In this document: positions 23,244-33,498 of the stretch, one piece after another | Numbering within the stretch: the first letter of the stretch is position 1 | How the letters are laid out: each line of letters begins with the position of its first letter | IMG/VR virus record: IMGVR_UViG_2711768056_000010 | From: a virus | Taxonomy: Duplodnaviria; Heunggongvirae; Uroviricota; Caudoviricetes | Strand: one strand, 5' to 3' | DNA length: 33,498 nucleotides | Program-made: the position numbers and the translations under genes | The notes under the pieces: generated by a model | Told to the model about the DNA's origin: nothing | Database searches by the model: none | Seen by the model: the letters and a program-made list of their open reading frames with translations, nothing else

Positions 23244-23309
23244 CTTAGCAAAAACGATCCTCAAACGGTCATGCAAATTCAGGCAGCATAGGCATGCACT
23301 GTTGTTAGG

Positions 23310-24428
23310 TTAGTTCGTAATGCCAATTTCCTTCAAAACTTTAGCCATTTCCGTCTGACTTAACTTGTTCCTGAACAAAGTGAAATTTTTCATTTTTTCC
23401 GCTCGTTGCCCTTTTGAAATAGTAATCTTTCCTGATGCTGATAACTCAGAGTCAAAAAAATAACATATTGTTGAATTTGAATTCTCCATATTTGACTTGA
23501 TACAATTCCATATGCTTTCTTTTTTCATTTCACACATTCTAGGACCAAAAATGATCCCTTTAACAACATTAGCATCATGATGAAAAATATGTCCAATATT
23601 TCGATTTACGCGTCTTTGAACATGCCGCTCACTCCCTATTCCTGCATTTGCCTCCGGAATAAACATTCGATATTCAGCTTCATATCTCCAAAATCTATTT
23701 TTAGTTAAAAATAACTCTGCAACATTTGCGCTTGGGTCTAGAAGTGAAACCTCTTTAGCCTGATTACTATATTTTATTGGCTTAACTGGAAAATTAAATT
23801 TATCTGATGAAAATAAATTTTCTCTTAGCTTCATTCCAGTATAGGGTATACCATCAATATTAAAATCCTGCGTTTCATAAATCACAACACAACCACTAAA
23901 GCCAGCAGCATAATGCGCCCACATCATACGATCTAACGCATTAGCTGAAAATGACACACTGAATACTGCAGGAACTATTTTCCTATACAACCTTTCTTTG
24001 ATACTGTTCTCGCAAAGTGAAACCAAATATTGGCGTGGTTCAGGAATATTTCCATAAATAGCAGAATTAATCACATTGATAGGTAGTAAACCATCATCTA
24101 TGATCTTACGTATCTCATCAACGTGTGAGTCAAACAGGCTATCTAATGACTCAATGCTACTTTTTATTTTTTTTCCTCTAAAAATACGATTCAATCCCTT
24201 ATGTATTTTCAAATTACTCAAATCCAATATGTGACTCAAATTTTTATAGGATTTATCGCAAGGAGAACGCAATAAAATGTCCCATAATTTCAATTTATTA
24301 TCGAAGCGATAATCTATATTGAGATCATTGGGATCATTCAATTGCGCAGGAGCGGAAAAATATAATTCATTATAACGAATAGCTTTCTCAAAGAAGAAGT
24401 CCGGACGGTAATACTTGAAAAGATACAT
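23310..24428 (-). CDS. Orphan DUF2971-like protein (hotspot cargo; candidate defence/abortive-infection gene)
   Basis: 372 aa, markedly AT-rich; motifs LFKYY...ELYFSAP..LNDPND, MWAHYA and FWRYEAEYR resemble DUF2971 as I remember it; own upstream intergenic region and own terminator. Confidence 0.6.
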   Translation of the reverse strand: MYLFKYYRPDFFFEKAIRYNELYFSAPAQLNDPNDLNIDYRFDNKLKLWDILLRSPCDKSYKNLSHILDLSNLKIHKGLNRIFRGKKIKSSIESLDSLFDSHVDEIRKIIDDGLLPINVINSAIYGNIPEPRQYLVSLCENSIKERLYRKIVPAVFSVSFSANALDRMMWAHYAAGFSGCVVIYETQDFNIDGIPYTGMKLRENLFSSDKFNFPVKPIKYSNQAKEVSLLDPSANVAELFLTKNRFWRYEAEYRMFIPEANAGIGSERHVQRRVNRNIGHIFHHDANVVKGIIFGPRMCEMKKESIWNCIKSNMENSNSTICYFFDSELSASGKITISKGQRAEKMKNFTLFRNKLSQTEMAKVLKEIGITN

Positions 24429-24812
24429 GACATTACCTATAACATTGCAATATTAATAACCGTATGAAAACAGTTTGATTGTATTGATAATATCCTATTC
24501 TGCATATACCACAGTGTAAAGATTAATTTTAAATACCATATCCAACAGTAAATCATGTATCGACCGCCAGATAAGAAGCTTTTGAAAAACTTGGACGATA
24601 ATTAATCAAAAGCTCTTCCCATCCTGTATCCTCTATCTCACTCTTTTGGACATTGAAAGAAGCCCCTCTGATCGGGAATGATTGTTTCCAGCGTTTGACC
24701 ACGATATACAATATGATATTTGATGTCTTTTGATCAGATGGCTAACGCCTCGCATAGCTCGTTGTTCAACCTTGCTGACGCCAGAAGCAAGTTCAGACGC
24801 CAGCAACGTTTC

Positions 24813-25046
24813 TTAATGCAGCCAGCTGTCGTCTTCCCACACCTTCTGCATAATTTTCATCACTTGTTTCCTTTCTTCGTCCAGTTGCAGTCCGGTCAGT
24901 TCCACACCGTTAGAGCTACCTTTACGGATACGAATTACCGTTTTGGGATACAGGGGGCGCAGATTGCGGTAAAGCTCTGATTCAAGGGCGTCCAGGGTAG
25001 ACTGGCTAATCTTCTGCTCTTTATCGATCATTATTTCAATGCGCAT
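24813..25046 (-). CDS. dinI: DinI-like protein
   Basis: MRIEIMIDKEQKISQSTLDALESEL...QKVWEDDSWLH resembles DinI (MRIEVTIAK...WESADDWF); ORF-track start trimmed to ATG at 25046 with GAGGGGA Shine-Dalgarno sequence. Confidence 0.75.
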   Translation of the reverse strand: MRIEIMIDKEQKISQSTLDALESELYRNLRPLYPKTVIRIRKGSSNGVELTGLQLDEERKQVMKIMQKVWEDDSWLH

Positions 25047-25056
25047 AAAAGTCCCC

Positions 25057-25245
25057 TCAGCTGATGACATCCATTGAGCGGTTGTATTCGTGGCTTCTGA
25101 TTTTTGCCATGAGTTCATCTGTCAGTTCAGAAACCCACTGCAGGGCCAGCCCCTTCTCTTCATCACTACACTCACTAGCCGCTACAAGCTTAAGAAAAAA
25201 ATCAATGCGCTGGAGCTTCAAAGACTCCAAAAAATAGTCCTGCAT
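25057..25245 (-). CDS. Small SOS-controlled protein, possible Tum-like antirepressor N-terminal module
   Basis: 62 aa from ATG at 25245 with a strong AGGAGG Shine-Dalgarno sequence; LexA box 45 bp upstream; 10 nt upstream of dinI-like gene; role inferred from position equivalent to 186 tum. Confidence 0.5.
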   Translation of the reverse strand: MQDYFLESLKLQRIDFFLKLVAASECSDEEKGLALQWVSELTDELMAKIRSHEYNRSMDVIS

Positions 25246-25288
25246 CTTTCCTCCTATGACACCACAAGCAATACTGTATGCATAACCA

Positions 25289-25304
25289 CTGTTTATATTT
25301 ACAG
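25289..25304 (-). promoter_or_regulatory. LexA (SOS) box
   Basis: CTGTTTATATTTACAG (CTGT-N8-ACAG with AT-rich spacer), flanked as ACTGT...ACAGTA. Confidence 0.75.
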
Positions 25305-25398
25305 TATATAATAATCTTACTGATGTAAAACGTTTTTTTACGTTCATCAGCCTGATATGCCTGGTATTATTAAGAGCACGAATTGTTAATCCGCGTAA

Positions 25399-27813
25399 TT
25401 AATACAGGTTCCGCCACTTATCATCTTCCTGCAAACGCTGGTTCCGATAGAAAATACGCAGGCCTGCTCCTGACGGAATGCTGCCGCCGCGAAGGAGTAA
25501 ATCGACCTCTTTCTCGCTGCCATCAAATCCTCTGGACTTCAGTTCATAGACGAGCTGCTGTCGTTGATGGTCTGTAATTCGCTGTTTGTAGTCTCTACGC
25601 CGTTTCGGTTTCACCAGGCGTAACCTTGCAGCCAGTTCCCGGCGTTCTTTTTTGTTCATACTGTGCAGGTAATCGTGCAACTCCTTGTCATCCATACGGG
25701 TGATATCCGTTCTGGTATCCCCATCAGCTGATTTGTCTTTCCCTTGTTGGTACAAATTTTCAGCAAGGGGACAGTTATTGCCACGAGTCCAAGGGGCGCA
25801 AGCGCCCTGGTCGGCTGCCGCCTCCTGAACGTCAACGGCTTTACGAACCATTTTCCACTTCACTGCATGAGTGCAGATCTTGCCCTCTGCAATGGGTGAC
25901 CAGATGCCATAAATACGAATGCCGTGATCGCCATAGGCGGTCGGCTCTTCGTTGATTTCATAAGCGGTTCTGATGAGGTGATATTTACGGGGAACCAGTA
26001 CGCCGCCCTGCTTCATGATGTAGGTGGCAAAACAACCAGCATCAGCAGCAGCCAGAATGGCATCAAGACGCGGGTTATCCAGTACCGGCGCACCTGCTTT
26101 TTTGTCACCCTGTTGCCTTGCCGCCTGACCAGCCAGCAAGCGAAGTTCACGGTAAGCCTGACGCCCCGGAATACCAAAGAAGCGGAATTGCTGAACACGA
26201 TGCAGAGACGCCCAGGCATTCACGTATTCAGCGTTATCACGCAGAGATTTACCCGTTTCCTTGCTGATCTCGCCAGCCAGACCACGACCGTCAATGTTCT
26301 TACTGATATATTTCGCGATGTAGCTTGTCGGCGTTCCTTTGCGCGGGTTAATCAACTCAGACTTAAAGCGCGGCCCAGTGTTATTGCCCAGCTCCTCGCG
26401 GTCTTCACGGATGGCAAACTTACGCAGTAATGCAGTGATGGCACGGCGGTCTTTTTTGCGCATGAAACACAACAGGTGCCAGTGAACTGTGCCATCATGA
26501 TGCGGCTCAGCCACCCGCACGCCATACCAGCGCAACCCGGCTTTGTGCATCGCCTTACGAAATGCAGCAAACATGCCGACCAGATAATCGCTGCTTTGTC
26601 TTACCGTCGCGTTTGTCCAGGTCGGGTTTGGTCTGCCGTTATTTAGCGTGGAATGGAAACGCGACGGACAGGTGATAGTGTAGAAAACGGCGCAGTCACC
26701 GCGCATTTCCGCGATAAGCTCCAGACCTTTAACACAGGCCATCATCTCATTGCGGCGATGCGCAGGGTTGCTGCTGCTGGCGTTTACCACATCCTCCATG
26801 TCCAGCGTGTCGCCGTCTTCGTTCACCAGTTCATGAGAACGGAAAAACTCCAGCGACTTACGGCGCTGCTCACGTTTATGCATCACGGCTTCATAGCTGA
26901 CATAAGGAGATGCTTTTTTGCTGACCAGGCAAACAGCGCGCAACTGCTCTTCCCGCCATTCGCAACGCATCTTCCATAATTTCCGATACCACCAGTCGGC
27001 GCACAACATACGCGCCAGCGAACCCGGAATGAGTTCATAGAGCACGGGTTTACGGCGGTTTCTTTTCCGACGGAGTTGCTCAAACGCAGGTGGGATGACA
27101 TCCAGACGCAGGGTTTCCGCTGCCACCTTTTCCCATGTCTTGCGGATTTCTTCTGGCTTAACGTCATCGGTGGCATACAAATCACCACAAGCTGCATCAA
27201 GGCACATACTCATATGCGCAGCTACCAGGGTGGACAGGCGTTTCACCTGATCCTGACTCATTTCAGGCAGGATCAGCAGGCCGTCCAGCCCTTCATGGCT
27301 TGCCATAAAGCGAAAAGATGCAGATAGCTGACTGTCGCGTACATGCTCCAGTCGTTCCAGGCATGGCTTAATCGTCTCACGTAAATAGCGGGAATAAGCC
27401 TTTGGCCTGCCCAGGCTGCTGAAGTATTCAATACGTTGCATCAGCGGCTTGCTGATATGGGAAGGCTGGGCGTTGACGTCCGCCAGAATGACCATGTCTG
27501 AATTAAAACGCTGCTGCTCATGCGCCAGCTTTGCCCGGCTAATGAGCTTATCCTGCTCCATTTCGCGCTGGACAGGATCACGTGATTCATTAAAGAAATA
27601 ACGCTCCCAGACCTGATCACTCAGTGCCTCGCGGCGCAACTGTTCCTGCTCGTTATCGGCAGCGTACAGAGTGATCAGGTTTGAAAGCGTAGAAACCGGC
27701 GCAACTTCCGCCGGGTCCAGATAAGGGTTAATGGCCTTTTTCGGGCTGTTCCATGAGAATGCTGCGGCAGCCTCGTTAAAGCCGCAGCAGTTGTTCATAT
27801 CGGCATGACTCAT
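25399..27813 (-). CDS. A: Replication initiation endonuclease A (rolling-circle)
   Basis: 804 aa, in the position of P2/186 gpA; start ATG overlaps dam stop (ATGA). Confidence 0.85.
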
Positions 27814-28667
27814 GCACGTACTCCGTACACGGCAGAACTATCCACGCCACGCGAATAATCAAATCCCATCCAGCAGCGCGGCCCGGAAACAGCAATGATT
27901 TCTGTTGCTGATTTACCCTCGCCAGCTGCCACACCGATGCTGCGTTTTACCTTGATATAGTGGTGAGTAAAATTGCGATACAGCGAACGGATCAGGGATG
28001 TGTCACTGTTAGAAACAATGACCGGATGTCCTTCAGATGATCGATGTTCAAGAACGGATGCCAGGTGATACTGGTCATCTTCAGTGAAACCATCAGTGTG
28101 ATAGCCGGAAAACGTACCGTCATACGGCGGATCGCAATACACCACATCCCCCGCCTTCAACATCGCCAGCGTTTCATCAAAGCTGGTGCAGATAAACGTT
28201 GCCCGCTGGGCTTTTTCTGCAAATGCGCGAATTTCTTTTTCAGGGAAATACGGATTTTTATAATTACCGTAGGGAATGTTGAAATGCCCACTCTTGTTAT
28301 AGCGACATAAACCACGGTAACCGTGACGATTGAGATACAGGAAATATACCGCTTTCATGAAATCAGTAATTTCAGTTGAGTAATTAAACTCCTGCCTTAT
28401 GTTGTAATAAGCTACCTCCCTGTTTGCGATCTCAAATAAAACTCTGGCGCGAGATATAAACGATTCACAATCAGCGGCAACCTTTTTATAGAGGTTGATT
28501 AAATCAGGATTAATATCCGCAACCAGATAGCTGGGGTAATCCGTCTCCATCATCACAGCACAAGAACCCGCGAAAGGTTCAACCAGTCGCGGGCCAGCAG
28601 GAAGATGTTTTTTCAGTTCGGACATTATGGCAGTTTTATTTCCCGCCCATTTCAGGATGGTGCTCAT
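27810..28667 (-). CDS. DNA adenine methyltransferase (Dam family)
   Basis: [15 protein letters not shown] and DPPY motifs; start trimmed to ATG at 28667 with GGAGG Shine-Dalgarno sequence. Confidence 0.85.
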
Positions 28668-28891
28668 ACAGCACCTCCGTTGTAATGTTTGCCTTTCAGC
28701 TCTGCAATTTCCTGACAGGTAATGCAAAGCTGCACACCTGGAATGGCACGGCGGCGTGCTGGCGGAATTGGCGCTTCACACTCAATGCAAAGCACGCGGG
28801 ACACGCCCGGCGTTTTGGCACGGGCAGCACGGATATGGCGTTGGCGTTCTTCTTCAACGCGCTGCTGTACGAGATCCATTGCATCAGCCAT
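28664..28891 (-). CDS. TraR/DksA-type C4 zinc-finger protein
   Basis: 75 aa with CIECEAPIP...CITCQ; stop overlaps dam start. Confidence 0.7.
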   Translation of the reverse strand: MADAMDLVQQRVEEERQRHIRAARAKTPGVSRVLCIECEAPIPPARRRAIPGVQLCITCQEIAELKGKHYNGGAV

Positions 28892-30610: not shown

Positions 30611-31243
30611 ATGTTAAACATCAGAATGGGTTCCGATACGGGAGGTAAAGCAGCTATTGAGAGGCTGCTTGCGGCTTATGGATTTACAACTAAGCAGGCA
30701 TTAAGCGAGCACCTGAATGTCTCAAAAAGCACTATGGCGAACAGAGTGTTACGTGACAGTTTTCCTGCTGACTGGATAATTCAGTGCGCACTAGAAACCG
30801 GTGTTTCGTTACTTTGGTTAGCTACAGGACAGGGAAGCATGAAAGGAGGAAGTGAGCCTGAAAAAAGTTCTCACAATGAGAACAAACAAGCAATTAAACC
30901 GTTATCCAAACTCATAACTCCATCTATTCCTAAAGGAACCTTGGAGAATGGACAACTCAGTATTGATGAAGAGATTTTCTTAGACCACAGCATATTACCT
31001 GCAGATTATGAAGAATCGATGTTCTTAGAAACCCCTACTGATTGTTATCTCATCGATAAATCAGTTAAACAAGTCAGCAATGGATTCTGGCTTATCAATA
31101 TTGATGGAATGATTATTATTGCAAAAATCATGCGGATTCCCGGCAATAAGATTGTAGTAAATCAAGATGAAGCGTCTTTCGAGTGCTCTGCTGATGATGT
31201 GGAAGTTATTGGGCGTGCAGTCAAAGTAATAAAGAGTATCTAA
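30611..31243 (+). CDS. cI: CI-like immunity repressor
   Basis: 210 aa; N-terminal HTH region (ERLLAAYGF...CALETGVSLLWLATGQG) resembles 186 CI; directly upstream of int. Confidence 0.8.
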   Translation: MLNIRMGSDTGGKAAIERLLAAYGFTTKQALSEHLNVSKSTMANRVLRDSFPADWIIQCALETGVSLLWLATGQGSMKGGSEPEKSSHNENKQAIKPLSKLITPSIPKGTLENGQLSIDEEIFLDHSILPADYEESMFLETPTDCYLIDKSVKQVSNGFWLINIDGMIIIAKIMRIPGNKIVVNQDEASFECSADDVEVIGRAVKVIKSI

Positions 31244-32271: not shown

Positions 32272-33498
32272 ATGACTCTCCATCAAACTTTATCTAAAGA
32301 ATTAAGAGATTTATTTGTTAGTATTTTAAGACGTTCTCTTTTTCGCCCCCCCATCAAAATAAATGGGGATATAGTCTCTGATTTTTCAAACAGATGCGAG
32401 CAGTTCAAAGAGTGCCTAAATGAATACATTTGTGATAACAATAATGCTGCTTCCGAAAGAGTTAAGCCAAGAATTAAAACTATTGAAAAAATACAACATG
32501 GATTAACTAATTCTCTTAAAGCATTTTTATCTGGCGACATTAAAGGAGCCTACGATATTTTTGATGAAGTTTTATCATACCCTACTGTCTATAGACATCT
32601 AAGAAGAATATCCATTCCACTAAAAGAAATATGTAATAAGCACAAGCCTTTATTCAGGGTAAGAAAGTCAGATAGACCAGTCGTAACAAGAAAGGAAATA
32701 TTTCATATCCCATTCACTCATCGACATCTTGTCAATGCTCAACGCTACTCCGTTGCAGGTTTGCCATGCCTTTACTTAGGTTCATCTCTCTATATATGCT
32801 GGCAGGAAATGGATAAACCTGACTTTGATAAATTATACCTATCATCATTTATATCTTGGGATGAGGAATCTTATATTTTAAATTTAGCTGCAGATTTTCT
32901 TTACAGTAGAACCGCTAAAGGATTTTACGGTGATATTAGTAATAGAGATAACCTCATTAAAATATCATATTTAACTTTATGGCCTCTGATAATTGCATGT
33001 AATTATTTAAAGCAGAATGAAAACTCTTCATTTAATCAAGAATATATCATCCCAAATTTGTTAATGCAGTGGATAAGTCGACTTGAAGATAGAGCTATTG
33101 TCGGCATAGCATATCGCTCAACAAAAATAAAAAGAACAGCAAACTCACACTTAGCAACTAATGTCGTCTTGCCTCCAAAAGTAAACTATGAAGATACAAT
33201 CACAAAACCTTATTGTCAGAAACTATTGTCAATGTTTGAGTTTACTCAACCTGTATCATGGCAGGTTTTGAAAACATTAGACTATAAAATTGATAATGAA
33301 ATAAATCAAGAGCAAGAAAAAGCAATTCATTTACTAAAACAGAAAGAAAGATTAAGTGGCATACAAGATTTAAATGAAGATCTTATAAACCTTTATCCTT
33401 TAACAGACTTCTACAAGCTAGAACAGTGCATGGATCGCCTGCTGCAGTATGATGTACTTGAGATAAAATCTGGCGGCACTTTGGCGGCAGAGCATTAA
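32272..33498 (+). CDS. Hypothetical cargo protein with RES-like motif
   Basis: 408 aa, strongly AT-rich; starts 4 nt after int stop with AAGGA Shine-Dalgarno sequence; RYSVAGLPCLYLGSSLYICWQE resembles the Arg...Glu...Ser core of RES domains; stop codon is the last triplet of the window. Confidence 0.55.
   Translation: MTLHQTLSKELRDLFVSILRRSLFRPPIKINGDIVSDFSNRCEQFKECLNEYICDNNNAASERVKPRIKTIEKIQHGLTNSLKAFLSGDIKGAYDIFDEVLSYPTVYRHLRRISIPLKEICNKHKPLFRVRKSDRPVVTRKEIFHIPFTHRHLVNAQRYSVAGLPCLYLGSSLYICWQEMDKPDFDKLYLSSFISWDEESYILNLAADFLYSRTAKGFYGDISNRDNLIKISYLTLWPLIIACNYLKQNENSSFNQEYIIPNLLMQWISRLEDRAIVGIAYRSTKIKRTANSHLATNVVLPPKVNYEDTITKPYCQKLLSMFEFTQPVSWQVLKTLDYKIDNEINQEQEKAIHLLKQKERLSGIQDLNEDLINLYPLTDFYKLEQCMDRLLQYDVLEIKSGGTLAAEH

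Follow-up and report, generated by a model that had tools for sequence, protein, structure and literature searches.

The window, as we call the whole 33,498-nt stretch of viral DNA analysed here, carries on its minus strand a predicted LexA operator and promoter followed by two small genes, and together these very probably form the SOS-induction operon of a Fels-2-like prophage, in which the phage 186 paradigm is split over two polypeptides. The first gene (tum, tumA-type; 25057..25245, minus strand) encodes a 62-amino-acid (aa) protein that profile comparison relates to the N-terminal half of 186 Tum, and the second (tumB-type; 24813..25046, minus strand) encodes a 77-aa DinI-like protein. 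A split tum/dinI SOS operon is already known for Fels-2-type prophages, and the small gene is identical in its product to one tested in the prophage DuoHS of Escherichia coli HS. Our results leave the current understanding of this established biology unchanged; what they add, an optional DinI part and a Tum that tracks the N-terminal domain of the CI repressor, are modest leads.

The window belongs to the P2/186 family (Peduoviridae), in which it resembles Fels-2, and about 80% of a 24.5-kb stretch is approximately 95% identical to Escherichia phage Cartapus and to Klebsiella prophages. A tmRNA gene (ssrA) lies at one end, and genes for an integrase, a 186-type CI and Apl/Cox-like and CII-like proteins lie at the other. 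Replication gene A (25399..27813, minus strand; Pfam Phage_GPA, 1.9e-127) is directly upstream of the module, and convergent portal and terminase genes are downstream of it, placing it between gpA and the cos/portal end of a P2-family genome. Along the minus strand the order is gene A, the hexamer TTTACA, the LexA box, AGGAGG, the 62-codon open reading frame (ORF) and the 77-codon ORF. An earlier note on this DNA, made from the sequence alone, had put the tum gene of 186 at the equivalent position, and the 186 record indeed places promoter p95, a LexA site and tum after A and before cos. The succession of gene A and module is common to 186, PSP3, Fels-2, E. coli HS and 16 of the 19 distant loci discussed below. 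The module is also present in 1125 of 5426 complete E. coli genomes (about a fifth), in which RefSeq labels its genes ‘hypothetical protein’ and ‘DinI-like family protein’. Rfam reported no known RNA in or near it.

The near-consensus LexA box that the earlier note had described is present on the minus strand, where its core, CTGTAAATATAAACAG at 25304..25289, is the sole CTGT-N8-ACAG in the window. The bare core is not rare by itself, because 0.38 copies are expected per window and at least one occurs in 34 of 100 shuffled sequences. The predicted 20-mer operator TACTGTAAATATAAACAGTG (25287..25306, minus strand; conserved in relatives) matches the LexA consensus TACTGTATATATATACAGTA at 17 of 20 positions, a quality found in 0 of 100 shuffles. 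From box to ATG the distance is 43 nt, close to the ‘about 45 bp’ given before. When the promoters of the window, Fels-2, 186, PSP3 and two distantly related loci, one of Citrobacter and one of Plesiomonas, are aligned, TACTGTA...ACAGT is the only invariant block, with a −35-like hexamer at a fixed distance upstream of it.

This hexamer is TTTACA in the window (25324..25329, minus strand), 17 nt upstream of TACTGT, and it aligns with the −35 element TTCACA of 186 p95, a promoter for which the 186 record also gives TACTGT as the −10 element and a LexA site overlapping that −10. By analogy, TTTACA would be the −35 element of an SOS promoter equivalent to p95, and TACTGT (25306..25301), the first six bases of the operator, its presumed −10 hexamer. 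The predicted operator would then overlap the promoter of the 62-aa gene in the same way as at p95, although the stretch from the box to the ribosome-binding site is about 25 nt longer in the window and Fels-2 promoters than in 186. A generic consensus promoter scan reported no promoter at the LexA box, missing TTTACA/TACTGT because TACTGT matches TATAAT at only three of six positions.

The 62-aa ORF lies at 25245..25057 and has the perfect AGGAGG Shine–Dalgarno sequence reported for it (25255..25250, minus strand), 4 nt before its ATG at 25245. The ORF listing gives longer ORFs (96 and 101 aa) that start at upstream ATGs. We prefer the short starts because of the Shine–Dalgarno sites, of which GGAGG-type examples occur at the same place in 19 related loci, and because the N-terminal pattern M-x-D-(Y/L)-(F/L)-x-E is conserved across the small-protein family. 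The protein is 100% identical to ECHS_RS04495 of E. coli HS and 96.8% identical to STM2728 of Fels-2. A word-indexed search found 484 close relatives. An exhaustive profile search, run over 1.8 billion representative proteins, yielded 84 relatives (clusters at 50% identity); every one is small, and in none of the 84 does the match stand at the N terminus of a longer fusion protein that contains DinI.

Family databases say little about this protein: it matches phrog_698 (unknown function; 6e-38), PHROGs returned unknown-function families only, and Pfam, NCBIfam and PADLOC returned nothing. The name ‘levan regulatory protein’, scattered through database records, found support in no family search. 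An AlphaFold2 model (pLDDT 89.7) shows a two-helix hairpin, with helices at residues 2–22 and 28–61 and a conserved cysteine in the turn. Compared with the PDB by Foldseek, the model retrieved generic helical hairpins only, none at E <= 0.001, and sequence searches found no solved structural relative.

The earlier note had proposed an alignment with the N-terminal 72 residues of 186 Tum. Pairwise this fails, as BLASTP against full-length 186 Tum returned no alignment, but at the level of profiles it succeeds (97% probability, E 5e-11). We built one profile from the relatives of the 62-aa protein and another from those of the first 69 residues of 186 Tum; comparison by hhalign gave probabilities of 97–98% and E values of 1e-12 to 5e-11. 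Over-extended ORFs that translate the LexA box were trimmed in both alignments before the control run. The trimmed profiles aligned residues 4–44 with residues 4–44 without gaps (97.1%, E 5.1e-11), at a score of 52.6 compared with 9.8 ± 2.1 (maximum 19.6) for 200 column shuffles and 9.0 for a reversed profile.

Identity between the two proteins is about 20%, seen only with profiles, and the shared pattern is E-x5-R-(I/V)-x-(L/M)-x2-(R/K)-L-x5-C-x3-(D/E)-(K/R)-x2-A-(L/I)-x-(W/L)-(I/V)-(A/S)-E-(L/I). Yersinia phage loci annotated ‘tum protein’ are weakly matched by both queries at the same place, and the 186-type N-terminal half also exists as a stand-alone protein of 63–78 aa. On the profile evidence, the homology between the 62-aa protein and the N-terminal half of 186 Tum is remote but real. 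TumA of PSP3 (60 aa) belongs to another branch, with an hhalign E of 1.2e-5 to 186 Tum versus 8e-4 to the window family, the latter at a score that equals the shuffle maximum.

The second ORF (25046..24813) begins 10 nt after the first, as had been noted, and its product covers the Pfam DinI profile (PF06183) from position 1 to 63 of 63, scoring 81.3 bits against a cut-off of 24.2 (6.6e-23). It also matches phrog_189, ‘RecA filament binding protein DinI’ (1.5e-29). Its score against the NCBIfam DinI equivalog model, 42.7 bits, is below the cut-off of 111, and we therefore regard it as a DinI family member and not as the host dinI orthologue. With phmmer it aligns over its full length to the E. 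coli DinI structure 1GHH (E 2.7e-6, residues 1–75 with 1–77), and its C terminus, ...MQKVWEDDSW, aligns with ...LQETWESADDW of DinI, an acidic C-terminal helix ending in W. Identity is 100% to the Fels-2 and 813R9 proteins, 78% to PSP3 TumB and 41% to residues 71–145 of 186 Tum. The last value agrees with the statement in the earlier note that the C-terminal half of Tum is DinI-related, a resemblance also described by Lemire et al. 2011 (PMC3121763). The antirepressor-like and DinI-like parts are separate genes here, as had been suggested, each ORF being homologous to one half of Tum. Most likely the DinI-like protein is not the inducer but an accessory: it would bind RecA filaments, modulate their co-protease activity and adjust how strong or how long the SOS signal is. 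This role is taken from E. coli DinI and from the 186 record, which annotates the DinI-like truncated Tum as a modulator. In Gifsy prophages, induction was not measurably changed by non-polar deletions of dinI (PMC3121763).

Published genetics bear directly on the small gene. In DuoHS, a P2-like prophage of E. coli HS, the DNA from the promoter and its LexA box through to the end of the second gene is 97% identical to that of the window, and the module (ECHS_RS04495 and the DinI-like ECHS_RS04500) also sits after gene A; DuoHS differs in a CI that is only 40% identical and in the unrelated cargo that follows its DinI-like gene. In the Phollow study (Nat Microbiol 2025), tum of DuoHS was deleted in frame, and Δtum and lexA(Ind-) each abolished mitomycin C-induced lysis and viral foci, with the host SOS reporter still firing in the Δtum strain (PMC12055606). 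The deletion primers NHR24 and NHR28 join ...GTGGTGTCATAGGAGGAAAGATG to TGAGGTGACTTTTATGCGCATTG (PMC12055606). Both primer sequences are present in the window (25243–25265 and 25037–25053), where they fuse the start codon of the small ORF to its stop (TGA) and keep the DinI-like gene with its ribosome-binding site; an in-frame Δtum could in principle lower translation of this closely following gene. The published experiment thus shows, for an identical small gene product, that tum and a cleavable LexA are required for induction by mitomycin C. The proposal in the earlier note that the module makes its prophage SOS-inducible rests on these Δtum and lexA(Ind-) data for a 100% identical protein (PMC12055606). 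In a Fels-2 lysogen, STM2726-2727-2728 were treated as one operon that responds to the mutagen MX, and STM2727, raised 5.5–14.8-fold by MX, was listed among the genes of the LexA regulon (PMC2225428).

The sequence supports the operator, the promoter geometry, the gene order and both homologies, which suggests the following course of events. In an undamaged lysogen, host LexA would sit on the operator over the −10 element of the p95-type promoter and keep the operon off; after DNA damage, activated RecA would prompt LexA to cleave itself and the promoter would fire. The first product would be a 62-residue helical-hairpin Tum that corresponds, as a stand-alone protein, to the N-terminal half of 186 Tum, and also to PSP3 TumA and DuoHS Tum. 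By extension from 186, this small Tum would inactivate the 186-type CI without cleaving it, so that the early lytic promoter opens. The second product, a DinI-family protein whose counterparts are PSP3 TumB and the C-terminal half of 186 Tum, would act on RecA, as judged from E. coli DinI. According to Shearwin et al. 1998, as cited in PMC3121763, 186 Tum binds CI and reversibly blocks its binding to operators without cleavage; we infer that Fels-2-type Tum likewise acts by binding CI and blocking its binding to DNA.

The core of this module is the LexA box and the small gene, and the DinI-like gene is dispensable in evolution. We compared 19 distant loci from other Enterobacterales and Plesiomonas, in which the small protein is about 40–50% identical to that of the window. 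An exact CTG-N10-CAG lies 33–55 nt upstream of the small gene in 16 of them; of the remaining three, two have a decayed copy of the LexA box and one has had the region replaced. A DinI gene was found within 3 kb in 0 of the 19, either by tblastn or by running the DinI HMM on all ORFs. At one further locus, ogr and the portal gene come immediately after the small gene, and one 45% identical relative of the small protein does keep DinI. These DinI-less loci and the stand-alone N-terminal halves of 186 type show that fused, split and solo forms all occur: the DinI part is fused in 186, split off in Fels-2, PSP3 and the window, and lost in many Enterobacter, Citrobacter and Plesiomonas relatives.

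Just past the stop codon of the DinI-like gene, the transcript could form a G+C-rich RNA hairpin that has no U tract (24772..24806, minus strand; for 24830..24740 the predicted fold is at −35.1 kcal/mol, z = −2.46). The terminator scan reported none after the DinI-like gene, and the hairpin is a possible partial terminator or transcript end; the equivalent position in 186 is taken by t95a, a partial terminator. Exactly at the stop codon of the DinI-like gene, the similarity between the window and E. coli HS breaks off. Beyond this codon lies a cargo gene (23310..24428, minus strand) within a low-GC island (0.31–0.37), encoding a 372-aa DUF2971-like protein that matches the PADLOC candidate PDC-S31 (1e-23). 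A separate promoter-like site is found at 24520..24492, and the gene may be co-transcribed from the SOS promoter; at the cargo position 186 has orf97, which is part of its SOS operon. The region between A and the portal gene is variable, with STM2726 in Fels-2 and a Ymh-domain protein in phage 813R9. In the window this variable, defence-type cargo begins directly after the module.

The presumed target of Tum is the CI immunity repressor of 186 type (30611..31243, plus strand; 210 aa). It shares 30% identity with 186 CI along its entire length (E 6e-34), matches the transcriptional repressor families phrog_4 and phrog_34054, and is flanked by the Apl/Cox-like, CII-like and integrase genes. In phages whose Tum is near-invariant (90–100% identical), CI is 40–97% identical overall; its N-terminal helix-turn-helix domain is 68–80% identical, and its C-terminal domain falls to about 30%. 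Across 13 phages, which are not phylogenetically independent, Tum identity correlates with the identity of the CI N-terminal domain (Spearman 0.78, p 0.0016), whereas for the C-terminal domain of the same 13 the value is 0.11, no correlation. Because these points are not independent, we treat the tracking as a lead rather than a result. It suggests a Tum that recognises the DNA-binding domain and cross-induces related prophages, as Gifsy antirepressors do. A broader proposal, in which Fels-2-type Tum recognises the conserved CI N-terminal helix-turn-helix domain and not the divergent C-terminal domain of oligomerisation, the operon is modular and its cargo, like orf97 of 186, is switched on by SOS read-through, is possible but rather doubtful at present. 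If true, one SOS-induced Tum could serve as a ‘master key’ and cross-induce co-resident Fels-2-like prophages, even where their CI proteins are strongly divergent outside the N-terminal domain.

Other readings of the module differ from ours in the inducer, its target or its control. The small protein might be needed for induction and yet not be a CI-binding antirepressor, acting instead through another regulator or route, for example by titrating out a factor of the host, by speeding the turnover of CI or by way of Apl or CII. A near-invariant Tum beside CI proteins that are only 40% identical overall is indeed unusual for a specific protein pair, and the fold is a generic helical hairpin without an informative structural neighbour. 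We nevertheless hold this reading to be improbable: the profiles relate the protein to the N-terminal half of 186 Tum, the 186 record and the literature (PMC3121763) describe Tum as inhibiting or binding CI, and the relation with the CI N-terminal domain (68–80% identical; Spearman 0.78) argues that a conserved target surface exists.

It is less probable still that the DinI-like protein is the real inducer or a co-inducer, with the small ORF serving only as a leader or accessory. The published Δtum removes the small ORF only and leaves the DinI-like gene in place, and induction is abolished (PMC12055606), although expression of the two genes, being 10 nt apart, may be coupled. Database records do name the DinI-like product ‘SOS operon TUM protein’ or ‘SOS induction modulator’, and both parts reside in one polypeptide in 186; the 186 record, however, calls the DinI-like truncated Tum a modulator only, and the 19 related loci keep the small gene without DinI, as does the one that runs straight into ogr and the portal gene. 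Least likely of all, and very nearly negligible, is a LexA-box match that is fortuitous, with the ORFs expressed constitutively or by read-through from gene A. An expectation of 0.38 bare cores per window and a generic promoter scan that called none there would fit such a coincidence. Against it stand the 20-mer match (0 of 100 shuffles), the box being the only invariant block across divergent promoters, the block of induction by lexA(Ind-) at the 97% identical E. coli HS locus (PMC12055606), and the induction of Fels-2 genes by a DNA-damaging mutagen (PMC2225428).

Read as a split SOS-induction operon, the module explains how common prophages of E. coli, Salmonella and Klebsiella are induced by DNA damage despite a repressor that is not cleaved. 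It also has value for annotation. In RefSeq, as in most phage records, the small gene goes under ‘hypothetical protein’, often with a start so far upstream that the ORF runs through the LexA box, and the name Tum is often given to its DinI-like neighbour; this is put right by placing the 62-aa gene in the Tum/TumA family.

The closest known systems share the layout of the module and differ around it. In 186, the p95 operon (tum, orf97) occupies the same position, with the LexA box over a TACTGT −10 and a variable downstream gene in the same orientation. Tum is there a single reading frame of 146 aa, internal starts of which also yield a separate DinI-like product of 76 aa; the 186 record states that Tum inhibits DNA binding by CI and that the DinI-like truncated Tum ‘modulates SOS induction’. 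PSP3 has two separate genes, tumA and tumB, behind a LexA box downstream of A, and its record annotates tumA with ‘UV induction of prophage’. A literature search on TumA, TumB and PSP3 found nothing; in PMC3121763 the upstream PSP3 gene is given as the antirepressor and the downstream one as a DinI homologue, with a personal communication as the cited source. PMC3121763 cites Bunny et al. 2002 for the ‘split tum’ of Fels-2. Fels-2 and the window both have ssrA at one end, and the LexA box and promoter are identical, as is the DinI-like STM2726.1 (older tag STM2727; 100%), next to an STM2728 that is 96.8% identical; Fels-2 differs in its CI (60% identical) and in its downstream gene, a 243-aa ORF in place of the DUF2971 gene of the window. 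The antirepressors GfoA, GftA and FsoA of the Gifsy and Fels-1 prophages offer a wider parallel. There too a small antirepressor and a DinI homologue share one LexA-repressed operon, the repressor is left uncleaved and the antirepressors act in trans, with cross-talk between prophages (PMC3121763), but these prophages are lambdoid and the gene order is reversed, with dinI first.

The small tum antirepressor gene of the window is preceded by a promoter of the type carried by Fels-2 (L003), in which the LexA box is separated from the ribosome-binding site by an additional stretch of about 25 nt (25262-25286, − strand). This stretch is shared with Fels-2 and the E. coli HS locus (L033), whereas the promoters of 186, PSP3 and the distant relatives lack it; within it lies ATACAGTAT, which resembles a LexA half-site. 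At the 19 distant Tum-family loci, no DinI gene was found within 3 kb (19 of 19), and 16 have an exact LexA box 33-55 nt before the start of the small gene. Two further boxes are visibly decayed, with one base lost in L018 and CTT replacing CTG in L020, and in L010 a G+C-rich sequence stands in place of the promoter region. These three may be prophages that are no longer SOS-inducible.

In database entries (P0001-P0120), the small gene is often called as 84-106 aa long, with the start codon chosen too far upstream. Such over-long calls run translation across the LexA box, reading TACTGT as ‘YTV’ (25057-25347, − strand, in the window). The resulting false N-termini align between families, and they inflated our first profile comparison until the alignments were trimmed.

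The presumed Tum target, the repressor CI (30611-31243, + strand), is mosaic among phages with nearly identical Tum (compared with L025-L030, L033 and L035-L039): identity is 68-80% in the N-terminal helix-turn-helix domain and falls as low as 29% in the C-terminal domain. One Klebsiella phage, ST11-OXA48phi15.3, encodes a 311-aa CI with a duplicated N-terminal domain. A complete tmRNA gene, ssrA (698-1060, + strand; Rfam, 295.8 bits), and the integrase gene lie at opposite ends of the window; in the Fels-2 annotation, integrase and CI are likewise at the far prophage end (STM2738-2739). Immediately beyond the integrase gene is a 408-aa ORF (32272-33498, + strand) whose final base is that of the window. 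It matches phrog_7835, a phage family of unknown function (7e-179), and has no match in PADLOC.

Gene A and the portal gene bracket a variable cargo site, occupied here by a low-GC island (about 23250-24750; 31-37% G+C) that begins immediately after the SOS module. The island holds a gene for a 372-aa DUF2971-like protein (23310-24428, − strand), which scores 21.7 bits against Pfam DUF2971, slightly below the cut-off, is assigned to phrog_1762 and matches the PADLOC phage-defence candidate PDC-S31 (1e-23). On the other side of the module, a DNA adenine methyltransferase gene (27810-28727, − strand) runs into the beginning of gene A, an arrangement shared with Fels-2 and E. coli HS; in 186, a PAPS reductase-like gene occupies this position. 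For the cargo, a parallel with 186 is proposed: orf97 of that phage is SOS-controlled by read-through, and by analogy read-through could place the DUF2971-like gene under SOS control.
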